A program made the position numbers and the translations under genes. The notes beneath the pieces are model-generated. The model was not told the DNA's origin. It searched no databases and worked only from the letters and a program-made list of their open reading frames with translations. DNA of 60,936 nucleotides, counting the filler. It is 5 parts of 5 records of this genome, joined end to end, with 100 filler letters (N's around TTAATTAATTAA, not from the genome) between each part and the next. Parts side by side here need not be neighbours in the genome. Positions count along the whole stretch, not along the records: positions 24,308 to 37,571 come from SRR31147125_8044; 4 more parts are not named here. The stretch is one strand, 5' to 3'. This document shows positions 12,029 through 50,609 of this stretch, piece by piece (position 1 is the stretch's first letter; every line of letters begins with the position of its first letter).

Positions 12029-12055
12029 AGATAGGCATAAAAAATAATCCTATAT

Positions 12056-12147
12056 AATTCCTTTCCACCGGGAGGCCCAACCATTTCTAGTTGAACCCTG
12101 GTCTGATATTCATACAAAAAATGCTTAGATTATCAGACTCGGAATTC
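12056..12147 (-). ncRNA. Moco RNA motif riboswitch, P3-less (Tuco-type) variant
   Basis: Minus strand AATTCCGAG; P2 TCTGATA/TATCAGA containing CTAAG..TATG; CCAGGGT; CAACTA-GAAA-TGGTTG; GCCTCCCGGTGGAAAGGAATT; sits upstream of a moeB-like gene. Confidence 0.88.
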
Positions 12148-12393
12148 AAATATTTAGTTTTTTTAGCATCGACATAAGCGACGCTTGTAAATCATCTTTG
12201 TTTTTGCACATGCGTACTCATATTACTGACTTCGTCTATTGCCCATTTGCTGATCTTGAAAAAGTGTTGTTCCAAAATGAACAGCCCATGTATTTATTAT
12301 AAGAAAGCAACTATTTGTTTAATATGCCCAGTGTTATAACTCGAGTATGCACCGTGCTTTTTCATCCAAATAACGCCTACTTCTTTCTTCTAT

Positions 12394-30091: not shown

Positions 30092-30844
30092 ATGAGCAGA
30101 ATTGATGATTTTTATATTGATAACTATGATAAGCTTTTTGCTGTAGCTTTCCGAATGGCGGGAGATTGCGAAAAAGCAAGTGATGTTTTGCATAATTCTT
30201 ACGTTAAAGCAAAAAAGAATATAGATAAGCTTGAGGGGAAATCATCACTTTACACATGGGTTTATAGAATTGTTGTAAACGAAAGCTATAACTATTTTGA
30301 AAAGGTAAAGAGATTACCGTCTCAAAAAGCATTTGATTTTTATGGGATCACCGAAAAGGAATTTTTACGGTCGATAGATTATGAAGAAAAACTATCTGAA
30401 AGTTTAATAATTGATGAGCTAAGAGAAAAATGTCTGCAGGCATTTTTAAAATGTGTGCCTAAAAATCAAAGGGTATGTTTTATTTTAAAATGCTGTACAG
30501 ATTTTACTCATAAAGAGATAGGTGCTATTATGCAAATAACCGAGCAAAATGTAAAGGTTACATTGCATAGGGCAAGGAAAAGATTACAAGAACTGTTAGA
30601 GATGAGATGTGGACTTATAGACAAAAACAAGCCATGTAAATGTCATGTTTGGATAAAATTTATAAGAGATAATAACTTAGAATTGCCAAGCGGATATAAT
30701 CAAGTAAGAAACGAAGAGCTAAAGAAAACACACTTTAAAAATATGAGTTATATTAACAGATTAAATAAGCTGTATTATGTAGAAAATTCGATAGATAAGA
30801 ACGAATTTACTGAAAAAATAAAAGAATTATCAAAAGTTTTGTAA
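30092..30844 (+). CDS. ECF RNA polymerase sigma factor with a Cys-rich C-terminal extension
   Basis: Region 2 GKSSLYTWVYRIVVN; region 4 EIGAIMQITEQNVKVTLHRARKRL; then CGLIDKNKPCKC. Confidence 0.9.
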   Translation: MSRIDDFYIDNYDKLFAVAFRMAGDCEKASDVLHNSYVKAKKNIDKLEGKSSLYTWVYRIVVNESYNYFEKVKRLPSQKAFDFYGITEKEFLRSIDYEEKLSESLIIDELREKCLQAFLKCVPKNQRVCFILKCCTDFTHKEIGAIMQITEQNVKVTLHRARKRLQELLEMRCGLIDKNKPCKCHVWIKFIRDNNLELPSGYNQVRNEELKKTHFKNMSYINRLNKLYYVENSIDKNEFTEKIKELSKVL

Positions 30845-30871: not shown

Positions 30872-30915
30872 AAGAACACTTTTTGGTATGGACCTTATAA
30901 GTGTTCTTTTATTTT
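30872..30915 (+). terminator. intrinsic terminator
   Basis: AAGAACACTT/AAGTGTTCTT stem plus TTATTTT. Confidence 0.7.
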
Positions 30916-30929
30916 ATAAAAGTAGAAAC

Positions 30930-30958
30930 TTGACAAGCAATTTTTTTATTGATAATGT
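30930..30958 (+). promoter_or_regulatory. sigma70/sigmaA promoter of the ACT-gene leader
   Basis: TTGACA-N17-TAATGT. Confidence 0.6.
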
Positions 30959-30964
30959 ATATTT

Positions 30965-31069
30965 AATTAAAGAAGAAAAAGCCAACGTTTTGCCACCGGG
31001 TAGAGCGATTATAGGTGTTTAGACATATTCCGTTAGGTCTTTGAAGGAATAGTGTTTGAACGCTTTTTT
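30965..31069 (+). ncRNA. guanidine-IV (GGAM-1/mepA motif)-like riboswitch
   Basis: A-rich 5' end; P1 CGTTTTGCC-ACCG-GGTAGAGCG containing CCACCGGG; then a long terminator stem (31014-31031/31046-31064, U6) whose loop holds GGTC, complementary to ACC in the P1 loop. Class assigned from the recalled consensus, not a model search. Confidence 0.7.
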
Positions 31070-31110
31070 ACTTTTAGGATGAAAAATGTGGAATTTGAAA
31101 GGATGGAATT

Positions 31111-31503
31111 ATGAAGGTAGAATTGGTACTGAGTTTATTGAAAGGCGAGTATAGTGTTTGCAGATTTAATAAAGAAACGGACTTGCCTATGTGGATAAGC
31201 GATAGCGGTTTTTTTAGCGTAACTAAAACGGATGATGAGCTTTCGATTGTATGCGATACGGCATGTGTCCCAAAAGGTGCAATACAGGAAAAAGAATGGA
31301 AAATACTAAAAATAGAAGGCCCATTGGATTTTGGTCTTGTTGGGATATTGTCTTCTGTTAGTGGTGTTTTGGCTGACAAGAGTATAAGTATATTTGCTAT
31401 TTCAACTTATGACACCGATTATATCTTGGTAAAACAGCAAAACTTAAAATTAGCAATTGAGTCTTTGCAGCAAAGAGGTTATAAAGTAAATAAACATGAC
31501 TAA
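31111..31503 (+). CDS. stand-alone CASTOR-like ACT-domain protein (COG3603/ACT_7-type)
   Basis: FFSVTKTDDELSIVC, GPLDFGLVGIL and IFAISTYDTDYILVK motifs; GAAAGGA RBS. Confidence 0.88.
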   Translation: MKVELVLSLLKGEYSVCRFNKETDLPMWISDSGFFSVTKTDDELSIVCDTACVPKGAIQEKEWKILKIEGPLDFGLVGILSSVSGVLADKSISIFAISTYDTDYILVKQQNLKLAIESLQQRGYKVNKHD

Positions 31504-31625
31504 AACATTAATCTAATGTTGTTGGAAGCATTATTTTAAACATTATAATGACTAACGAAAAATATAAAAGCGGTAGTGTTAGAAGCAAAGGATTTTGATT
31601 AACATAGAGAGAAATACAGCAAGTT

Positions 31626-31669
31626 AAAATACCAACTCCAATAAAGTTAATAATGGAGTTGGTATTTTT
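31626..31669 (+). terminator. intrinsic terminator after the ACT gene
   Basis: 15-bp stem AAAATACCAACTCCA/TGGAGTTGGTATTTT. Confidence 0.75.
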
Positions 31670-31688: not shown

Positions 31689-31723
31689 TTGACAAAGTAT
31701 ACTAAATATACTAAAATAGTATA
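31689..31723 (+). promoter_or_regulatory. sigmaA promoter with overlapping palindromic TetR operator
   Basis: TTGACA-N17-TAAAAT; TATACTA-AAA-TAGTATA at 31707-31723. Confidence 0.7.
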
Positions 31724-31738: not shown

Positions 31739-32290
31739 ATGACAATAGATAATAGAATTGATAGTGCGGCATACGAGTTTGTTTTTAGATATGGTATAAG
31801 AAGCTGGAATATGGATGAGTTTTCTAAACATGTTGGTATTACTAAGCGCACACTATATAAATATGTTAACAGCAAAGAGAAACTATGTGAAAGAACGCTA
31901 TTAAATTACATAAGGGATATTCAAAGCCAGCTTAATAATAAGCTTGCTAATGAGACCGATTTTAAAAAGGGTATAGATAGTATTGTTTACGCTTATCCAA
32001 AACTATTGGCAAAAACGGATTCGCATGTAATTAAAGATATTTTTTTAAAGTATCCTAATATAGAACAAACGGTTACACGTGAAAAAAATAATATAGCGAA
32101 AGAGGCTTTGGAATTTATTAAGAAGGCTCAAGACAAAGGAGTGGTTGATAAAAGCTTTAAAGCAGAAATGATTTTGGAGACGATTCAAGCTCTGGTTATT
32201 TTTAATATAAAAAACTTTCCAGATAATTTGGAAGAAAAACTACAGCAAAGCATAAATATGATGGTATATGGCATTATTACAGAGAGATAA
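31739..32290 (+). CDS. TetR/AcrR-family regulator
   Basis: WNMDEFSKHVGITKRTLYKY HTH. Confidence 0.9.
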   Translation: MTIDNRIDSAAYEFVFRYGIRSWNMDEFSKHVGITKRTLYKYVNSKEKLCERTLLNYIRDIQSQLNNKLANETDFKKGIDSIVYAYPKLLAKTDSHVIKDIFLKYPNIEQTVTREKNNIAKEALEFIKKAQDKGVVDKSFKAEMILETIQALVIFNIKNFPDNLEEKLQQSINMMVYGIITER

Positions 32291-50164: not shown

Positions 50165-50220
50165 TTAACTTGATTAGAGTTTTGTATAACGCAGGACTTT
50201 TAAAATGAAAATAAAAATAG

Positions 50221-50502
50221 TTACTGTGGTGGTATGAACCTTAATAAGGAAATCGGTTAGAATCCGATACAGCCCCCTCTACTGTGATATGGACGAAAGT
50301 ACGAGAAAGTCACTGATGAAGTGAGGAAAGTTAGAAGTTATTTATACAGATTAAAATAACTTCAGAAAAGTCTAAAGCTTAAAACAGAATTAACCATTGA
50401 AGCATTGATGAATTCTATTTTAAACTAAGACTTTTTACTTCTTTATTTTAATTGGGAAGATGTACGATTAGAACGAAGTTAGTCAGGAGACTTACCCAGT
50501 AA
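50221..50502 (+). ncRNA. cobalamin (B12) riboswitch with an enlarged accessory domain
   Basis: GGT..TTAATAAGGAAATCGGTTAGAATCCGATACAGCCCCCTCTACTGTGA..GTCACTG..TGGGAAG..AGTCAGGAGACTTACC; P1 TTACTG/CAGTAA. Confidence 0.92.
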
Positions 50503-50609
50503 ATATAAGCATGAATTTCGGGGACGGGAAATTTTATACTTAGAATAATGGAATGGAATCTAGGCTTTTGTAAATCAAAAGTCTGGTTTGATTTGCATAA
50601 ATTAAGTAT

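Follow-up and report, generated by a model that had tools for sequence, protein, structure and literature searches.

A probable guanidine-IV riboswitch upstream of an orphan ACT_7 gene related to the arginine sensor CASTOR1

Guanidine-IV riboswitches, which have been described as the mepA motif (Salvail et al., 2020) and as GGAM-1 (Lenkeit et al., 2020), are transcriptional ON switches in which the aptamer is split between a first hairpin, P1, and the terminator that follows it. According to the published model (Salvail preprint), the linker is so short that P2, the helix between the two loops, and the full terminator cannot coexist; guanidine stabilises P2, whose presence sterically excludes the complete terminator stem, and transcription continues. 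Lenkeit et al. (2020) name PnuC and MATE genes as guanidine-IV-specific associations, and B3/4 and GNAT genes have also been reported under guanidine-IV control. A guanidine-IV-controlled GNAT acetylates canavanine, and guanidine-controlled B3/4 proteins deacylate canavanyl-tRNA. Here, we describe a leader RNA of this kind (30986-31069) in front of a gene for a stand-alone ACT protein of the ACT_7 family (31111-31503, plus strand). It lies in a DNA stretch of 60,936 nucleotides, five parts joined with filler letters, which we refer to as the window; the part concerned comes from record SRR31147125_8044.

The widespread ACT_7 family has been represented by structures since 2005 (1ZHV, 1ZVP) and, to our knowledge, has no assigned function. 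Gene associations of riboswitches have led to correct predictions before, namely for the guanidine exporters (Gdx), for guanidine carboxylase and for the canavanyl-tRNA deacylase CtdA. The class of riboswitch concerned here is already known, the copy in the window is an ordinary member of it, and the interest lies in a guanidine link, by way of two riboswitch classes, to an orphan protein family related to CASTOR1, the arginine sensor of mTORC1. Some Clostridia have their ACT_7 genes under one or other of two independent guanidine-sensing RNAs, and the positions with which CASTOR1 holds arginine are kept invariant in the bacterial proteins. The switch thereby gives the family a testable tie to guanidine-type compounds.

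Architecture and conservation of the leader RNA

The leader consists of a hairpin whose loop reads ACCG and of a long terminator that carries GGUC within its loop, followed by the ACT_7 gene. P1 (30986-31007, plus strand, as are all elements of the leader) is a helix of 9 base pairs (bp), CGTTTTGCC / ACCG / GGTAGAGCG, which can also be written CGUUUUGCC-ACCG-GGUAGAGCG; its loop spans 30995-30998, and A30995, C30996 and C30997 form the 5' half of the kissing helix P2. A single-stranded linker of 5 nucleotides (nt), AUUAU (31008-31012), connects P1 to the intrinsic terminator hairpin (31013-31069), which doubles as the 3' half of the split aptamer and comprises a 19-bp stem (31013-31031 with 31046-31065) and a U-run (31064-31069). 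The conserved 14-nt terminator loop GUUAGGUCUUUGAA (31032-31045) carries GGTC at 31036-31039, where G31036, G31037 and U31038 are the P2 partners of C30997, C30996 and A30995, respectively, while A31035 and G31043 are spaced like the essential A and G known from the literature.

The positions reported as sensitive to mutation are G26 and A63 (Salvail et al.), G66, U67 and G72 (Lenkeit et al.), and A29-U72, C30-G71 and G77 (the eLife study); the last of these studies identifies A29-U72 and C30-G71 as kissing pairs and reports that the double mutant A29G/U72C restores the loop. The spacing ACnG ... AnGU(n4)G of the window agrees with these essential positions, in that counterparts exist for the essential G five bases past the U, for the A that precedes the G by two bases, and for the P1-loop G; the numbering offset between the papers is one that we infer. 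The minimum-free-energy fold of the leader has a z-score of -2.9, and 1 of 200 shuffled sequences folds equally well.

A first nhmmer search with the leader gave no match across the 80 genome loci of ACT_7 homologues. A homologue, on the metagenome contig L087, was found by a scan for terminators with the loop A-n-G-U-n4-G, the positions of this motif being taken from the published mutation data. The two leaders match over 90 nt (nhmmer, expectation value (E) 6.8e-15), with ACT proteins that are only 58% identical; all ten stem substitutions between them preserve pairing (three in P1, seven in the terminator stem), and the loops are the same save for one base. A covariance model built from these two sequences only (R1) was run on 150 Clostridia genomes drawn evenly; 19 of them contain full-length matches at E <= 1e-4, 20 in all, and one weak match was also obtained. 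The alignment of the resulting 22 sequences (window, L087 and the 20 new copies) served as a second model, R2, which located 24 further places, spread over 22 genomes, in a second, order-level sample of 151 Clostridia genomes, drawn from the order of the nearest ACT homologue's genome and scanned for more pairs of guanidine-IV and ACT_7, as well as one further copy in Geosporobacter ferrireducens (G407). A hidden Markov model (HMM) made from the 20 other copies, with the window and L087 excluded, recovers 30979-31071 of the window with E 1.4e-14. The weakest of the strong matches, L213:1501-1596, has an altered terminator loop, GUCAGGGUUUUGAAA, and lies 114 nt before a pseudouridine synthase gene; this copy could be decaying or re-purposed.

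Across the 22 aligned sequences, the P1 loop region GCC(A/G)CCGGGUA and the terminator loop CGUUAGG(U/C)CUU(U/A)GAAG are near-invariant and the stems are variable. Paired cells reach 95.1%, compared with 77.7% in shuffled alignments and 39-44% when the partners are slid, and both-sided changes occur in 23 of 31 pairs; none of 500 shuffles matches the observed values. P1 (helix 1) is 95.2% paired with both-sided change in 5 of 9 pairs, and the terminator helices (3 and 4) are 94-98% paired with both-sided change in 17 of 19 pairs. In the kissing helix, the pair 18-81 covaries (A-U in 15 sequences, G-C in 4, other in 2), and the flanking pairs 19-80 and 20-79 are C-G in 21 of 21. A small 4-bp hairpin that RNAfold places atop the terminator was rejected as a conserved helix; it is made of weak U-A, U-G, A-U and G-U pairs among conserved loop bases and is not kept in members with ...UUAGAAG.

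The genes downstream of the copies place the RNA among known guanidine-IV contexts. Among 20 downstream genes of the first sample, five are MatE, ten are NMN_transporter/PnuC-like by Pfam with four more recognised by eye, and one encodes a pseudouridine synthase. The second sample gave 21 callable first open reading frames (ORFs) at 25 loci: eight MatE, two B3_4, two Pyridox_ox_2, and one each of GNAT, NMN_transporter and EamA; four of the rest belong to other single families, and two are short ORFs for 60 amino acids (aa) at L253 and L254, which are probably mis-called. Taken together, the 41 classified copies precede 13 MatE, 11 NMN_transporter (plus the four by eye), two B3_4, two Pyridox_ox_2, one GNAT and one EamA gene. 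The gene list given in the initial annotation holds for MATE, PnuC-like, B3/4 and GNAT; its NimA entry does not occur in the available main text of Lenkeit et al. (2020), in which the name appears 0 times, and PNPOx-type genes did occur downstream. SugE was not seen downstream of copies in the two Clostridia samples. The published guanidine-IV gene set downstream and the covarying ACC/GGU loop-loop pair together bear out the class proposed at the outset, and we therefore consider that 30986-31069 is very probably a canonical guanidine-IV riboswitch that turns on the transcription of a single gene.

A point against this assignment is the silence of Rfam: cmscan of the leader returned no family at gathering thresholds and no guanidine family at E <= 10. 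The same copy of Rfam 15, however, matched 0 of 20 homologous RNAs that precede MATE or PnuC-like genes, so that the lack of a covariance-model match on the window leader, which the initial annotation would have counted as a refutation, is uninformative. As this copy is blind to guanidine-IV RNAs, negative Rfam scans of such leaders are no evidence of novelty. In a control Rfam scan of 5 SMR and 20 (of 30) MATE loci from five Clostridium genomes, guanidine-I alone was found, before 3 SMR genes, and R2 detected no guanidine-IV in those 35 SMR/MATE loci.

Two other explanations of the RNA bear on these data. The structure might be a plain Rho-independent terminator or attenuator with a chance hairpin upstream and no ligand sensing, as the missing Rfam match, the short elements and a promoter that is weak by consensus could suggest. 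The preceding sigma-factor gene has a terminator of its own, however, at about 30872-30916, and the leader is therefore not the terminator of that gene; moreover, it is the loops and not the stems that are most conserved, the loop-loop pair covaries, the independently built HMM recovers the element, and its homologues stand directly before known guanidine-regulated gene classes. This explanation is already contradicted by the comparative data, and we give it a negligible probability. The leader might also be a guanidine-IV look-alike with another ligand, for example the Gd4v variant, with the ACT protein answering to that ligand. Gd4v shares the architecture of two hairpins, pseudoknot and terminator and most conserved nucleotides with guanidine-IV, the boundary between them being hard to draw (PMC9788692); the small hairpin atop the window terminator resembles the Gd4v feature D2, and ACT_7 is not among the six commonest guanidine-IV associations in the accessible main texts. 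Set against this, the loops of the window are identical to those of copies preceding MatE and PnuC-like genes, PnuC being listed as a guanidine-IV association, the small hairpin is weak and not maintained, and the ACT_7 family is also found under guanidine-I, an unrelated guanidine aptamer. By the textual description that sets Gd4v apart, the 22 sequences hold no conserved extra helix, and its marker, the aminotransferase (transaminase), is downstream in 0 of 41 copies. A ligand other than guanidine at this aptamer is thus highly improbable in our estimate.

Assuming a guanidine-IV switch, the sequence of events at this locus would follow the published model. Without guanidine, the full 19-bp terminator would form and transcription would end at the U-run near 31069. 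With guanidine, A30995-C30997 of the P1 loop would pair with G31036-U31038 of the terminator loop, the 5-nt linker would then be too short for the full terminator stem, and polymerase would read through into 31111-31503. The window copy has all the parts, namely the 5-nt linker, the 3-bp P2, the 19-bp terminator and the U-run, and by analogy with the described members guanidine-dependent read-through would be expected of it.

The remaining elements of the locus fit a single-gene unit. Every element listed in the initial annotation, i.e., promoter, hairpin, terminator with the GGTC loop, ACT gene and gene terminator, was found in its place on inspection of the sequence. The putative sigma-70 promoter (30930-30958, plus strand) comprises a -35 box TTGACA (30930-30935), a 17-nt spacer and an extended -10 region TGaTAATGT (30950-30958); it was missed by a consensus scan because its -10 hexamer agrees at only 3 of 6 bases, and L087 shares its layout (TTGACA-N17-TAACAT with TG). 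The U-run lies 41 nt from the start of the ACT gene, which is preceded by the ribosome-binding site AAGGATGG (31099-31106, plus strand) at 4 nt from the ATG and encodes 130 aa with the domains A9CJY8-like_N and ACT_7. An intrinsic terminator at approximately 31628-31669 (plus strand; ATACCAACTCC ... GGAGTTGGTAT followed by TTTTT) belongs to the ACT gene itself, which is therefore monocistronic. The upstream sigma-factor gene (30092-30844; Pfam Sigma70_r2/r4) ends before its terminator, at which a match to the Listeria small RNA rliE (30872-30916) was set aside as a terminator look-alike, being truncated, with E 0.19 and 21 bits against a gathering score of 90. The next gene, at 31739, encodes a TetR regulator and has its own promoter-like site at 31689-31717 in the consensus scan. 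An ORF of 44 aa (30888-31022), considered as a possible leader peptide, overlaps the promoter and P1. Elsewhere in the window, Rfam reports a molybdenum-cofactor riboswitch (12042-12156, minus strand, 69.7 bits) and a cobalamin riboswitch (50209-50513, plus strand, 53 bits).

Guanidine riboswitches upstream of ACT_7 genes

The link between guanidine sensing and ACT_7 was followed through 160 homologue loci, 80 from genomes and 80 from metagenomes, among the matches listed. No orthologue of the ACT protein with more than 64% identity was present among the genome and metagenome contig matches listed. Within the window and these 160 loci, the guanidine-IV switch occurs in the window (89.7 bits) and in L087 (86.9 bits) only. 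A second class joins it: guanidine-I (RF00442) immediately precedes ACT_7 in 11 of the 73 genome loci that were scanned with Rfam (66-88 bits) and in the metagenome locus L099 (84.5 bits), which brings guanidine-I to 12 of the 160 homologue loci; a guanidine-I model, R3, found none further in the remaining 87 loci (79 metagenome loci, 7 genome loci without an Rfam scan, and L077). The count of riboswitch and ACT_7 pairs that the initial annotation had in view thus falls out differently for the two classes, with guanidine-I preceding ACT_7 in these 12 loci and guanidine-IV doing so in 0 of the 41 classified copies from the sampled Clostridia genomes.

The ACT-linked guanidine-I aptamers match SMR/Gdx-linked ones of the same genera at the conserved positions (72.8-89.1 bits) and therefore belong to the guanidine-sensing subtype and not to the ppGpp or PRPP variants. 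Where Rfam was run on ACT loci (73 of the 80 genome loci and one metagenome locus), it gave no guanidine-I match before any gene other than ACT_7 and no riboswitch of another class upstream of ACT_7; the T-box of L055 is on the downstream side of the ACT gene, where it precedes a gene for a tRNA synthetase. In L077 (Clostridium sp. SHJSY1, 2480-2900), a guanidine-I aptamer is reduced to its initial ~25 nt, undetected by Rfam and R3, which run straight into an ACT_7 frame that misses its first ~12 codons; a deletion appears to have taken out the remainder of the switch together with the ACT_7 start. Geosporobacter ferrireducens (G407) uses both classes, guanidine-I for ACT_7 (L002, 82 bits, ~275 nt upstream) and guanidine-IV for MATE (L247, 73 bits).

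Among the homologue loci, the ACT gene is mostly a single-gene unit. In L087, it is followed after 30 nt by a 143-aa EamA-type half transporter (1917-2345) and then by a nitroreductase, and a similar half-size EamA (DMT) protein of ~140 aa lies directly behind a guanidine-IV switch at L260:1050-1472. This half-size EamA protein is a candidate for a small guanidine exporter outside the SMR, MATE and PnuC classes. On the ACT_7 tree, the window, L087 and L001 form a weak group only (SH-aLRT 86). As this tree is poorly resolved (130 columns, with 78 of 143 inner branches open), it supports no count of independent gains.

No report tying ACT-domain, COG3603 or PF13840 genes to guanidine riboswitches was found in the accessible main texts and two 2025 reviews, which do not include the supplementary gene tables; the association may be listed in such tables or in Nelson 2017.

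The ACT protein and the arginine pocket of CASTOR1

The ACT protein matches ACT_7 in Pfam with E 1.6e-20 (73.1 bits, cut-off 27) and A9CJY8-like_N with E 8.9e-18 (64 bits, cut-off 27). Its closest solved relative is Atu0741 (PDB 1ZHV; HMMER, E 5.1e-23). Human CASTOR1 is matched with E 9.4e-16 in two stretches, one per half, as if the bacterial unit had been duplicated in tandem. The kinship with CASTOR1 asserted in the initial annotation is confirmed by this HMMER value of about 1e-15, as is the alignment of STYDTD (98-103) with STFNFD (299-304); the aligned aspartate is indeed part of the arginine pocket, as CASTOR1 Asp304 forms a salt bridge with the guanidinium of arginine (PMC5020642).

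In that pocket, Asp304 holds the guanidinium together with the carbonyl groups of Gly274, Thr300, Phe301 and Phe303, while Ser111, Val112, Glu277 and residues 279-281 hold the amino-acid end of arginine; the variants S111A and D304L show no arginine binding (PMC5020642). In the HMMER alignment, Asp73 of the bacterial protein corresponds to Gly274, Gly78-Ile79-Leu80 to Gly279-Ile280-Val281, Ser93 to Ser111, and Ser98-Thr99-Tyr100-Asp101-Thr102-Asp103 to Ser299-Thr300-Phe301-Asn302-Phe303-Asp304. All the arginine-contact positions of CASTOR1 map to invariant columns in 25 aligned bacterial proteins.

The AlphaFold model of the protein (pLDDT 86.6) superimposes on 1ZHV with a TM-score of 0.85 and on CASTOR1 with 0.70, and its fold matches include threonine- and lysine-binding ACT domains of aspartate kinases, to which NCBIfam gives weak matches only. 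The predicted homodimer scores 0.86, with 0.00 for the best control; contacts agree at least to 95% between runs, and the pLDDT of the partner is at least 87. Of 30 proteins whose structures show pairs of one chain, 21 attain this mark, as do 0 of 23 that were solved as single chains; the pass may reflect memory of solved relatives in the modelling. On the basis of these models, the ACT_7 protein is predicted to form a homodimer with the equivalents of the CASTOR1 pocket at the subunit interface, which in the prediction includes the pocket residues 74-78, 91-101 and 103-104.

Neighbouring genes add some context. The commonest upstream neighbour of ACT_7 is GNAT, with Acetyltransf_1 in 10 of 73 upstream ORFs from the 80 genome loci, and the downstream ORFs include Na_Ca_ex (8 of 75), LysE-type translocators (4 of 75) and GNAT (3 of 75). 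The Na_Ca_ex neighbours appear to be mostly those of Methanosarcina loci, as judged by eye only.

How these observations are to be read depends on what the protein binds. The initial annotation suggested guanidine or a guanidino compound, and this suggestion has been strengthened by guanidine-I in front of ACT_7 in the 12 loci described above. The protein would bind a ligand that bears a guanidinium group, i.e., arginine, canavanine or guanidine itself, and would belong to the guanidine/canavanine response of some Clostridia; a pocket for an arginine-like ligand, expressed on a guanidine signal, would fit the canavanine/guanidine theme of the genes under guanidine control. We advance such binding tentatively, as a possibility somewhat short of even. 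A further-reaching proposal, which we regard as rather unlikely in this full form, is that ACT_7 proteins are homodimeric guanidinium receptors with a pocket ancestral to that of CASTOR1, wired in some Clostridia at least twice, through two unrelated aptamers, into guanidine/canavanine defence. The ligand of such receptors might be canavanine, arginine or guanidine, and their role might be to buffer the compound or to control a recurrent neighbour, for example a GNAT acetyltransferase or a small DMT or LysE exporter.

A different account accepts the guanidine-IV switch as genuine and takes the ACT protein to be a general amino-acid-binding or regulatory module, similar to those of aspartate kinases, that has entered the guanidine regulon of some Clostridia for an indirect reason. 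Several findings speak for it and weigh against a dedicated guanidine function, beginning with the distribution of the switch: 147 of the 160 homologue loci lack a guanidine switch, and ACT_7 follows none of the 41 classified guanidine-IV copies. Of 399 genomes sampled evenly across the class, 44 have an ACT_7 homologue, and 0 of the best 30 of these 44 loci carry guanidine-I or guanidine-IV, so that the guanidine link is confined to some lineages. Near-identical ACT_7 proteins, moreover, occur with and without a switch and are interleaved on the tree; homologues with unrelated surroundings, the Na_Ca_ex neighbours among them, are present in Methanosarcina, in Chloroflexota and in further phyla; and the fold and NCBIfam matches to aspartate kinases point in the same direction. 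As to the ligand, CASTOR1 also depends on the amino-acid end of arginine and did not accept creatine, citrulline or ornithine (PMC5020642), the STY.TD motif is also kept in the N-terminal half of CASTOR1, so that conservation of the pocket does not fix the ligand, and the present sequence and model comparisons lend no support to free guanidine in the pocket. On the other side stand two unrelated guanidine aptamers on one gene family, with no other riboswitch class upstream in the loci scanned, the mapping of all guanidinium and amino-acid-end contacts of CASTOR1 to invariant columns, and the position of GNAT, a class with a canavanine-acetylating, guanidine-IV-controlled member, as the commonest upstream neighbour. 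Weighing both, we find the general module a plausible account that comes not far below an even chance.

Should binding of a guanidino ligand by ACT_7 proteins prove true, it would provide a ligand for the family and a member of guanidine/canavanine biology that is neither a transporter nor an enzyme. It would also offer a bacterial model for the origin of the pocket of the mTORC1 arginine sensor.

Comparison with known systems

The leader shares with guanidine-IV (mepA, Salvail et al., 2020; GGAM-1, Lenkeit et al., 2020) the combination of P1 and a split-aptamer terminator with a short linker, the A-U and C-G loop-loop helix, the conserved ACnG and AnGU(n4)G, and the occurrence in Clostridia; it differs in the regulated gene only, ACT_7 being unnamed in the accessible parts of the published main texts. 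With Gd4v (Lenkeit et al., 2022; PMC9788692), it has the overall architecture and many conserved nucleotides in common, whereas the marks of Gd4v, namely an additional hairpin on the terminator, an altered essential G and transaminase (PRK07324) contexts, were not seen here. Guanidine-I (ykkC subtype 1, RF00442) of Clostridium, Geosporobacter and Marinisporobacter has the same ACT_7 target and the same usually single-gene, terminator-based ON platform, but its aptamer fold is unrelated, and it occurs on branches of the ACT_7 tree other than that of the window.

On the protein side, the closest solved relatives are Atu0741 of Agrobacterium (1ZHV, from structural genomics), which has the same two-domain layout, and VC0802 (1ZVP). 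CASTOR1 (PDB 5I2C, 5GS9, 5GT7) is built from homologous ACT_7 modules and has its pocket residues at an ACT-ACT interface, as does the model of the bacterial protein. It differs in being a tandem duplication, with four ACT-like units in ~329 aa, a single site for arginine at ACT2-ACT4 and GATOR2 as its partner, whereas the bacterial protein is a single unit of 130 aa, so that its homodimer would have two symmetric sites. The window protein is thus a homologue of one half of CASTOR1 and not a member of the CASTOR1-type sensors.

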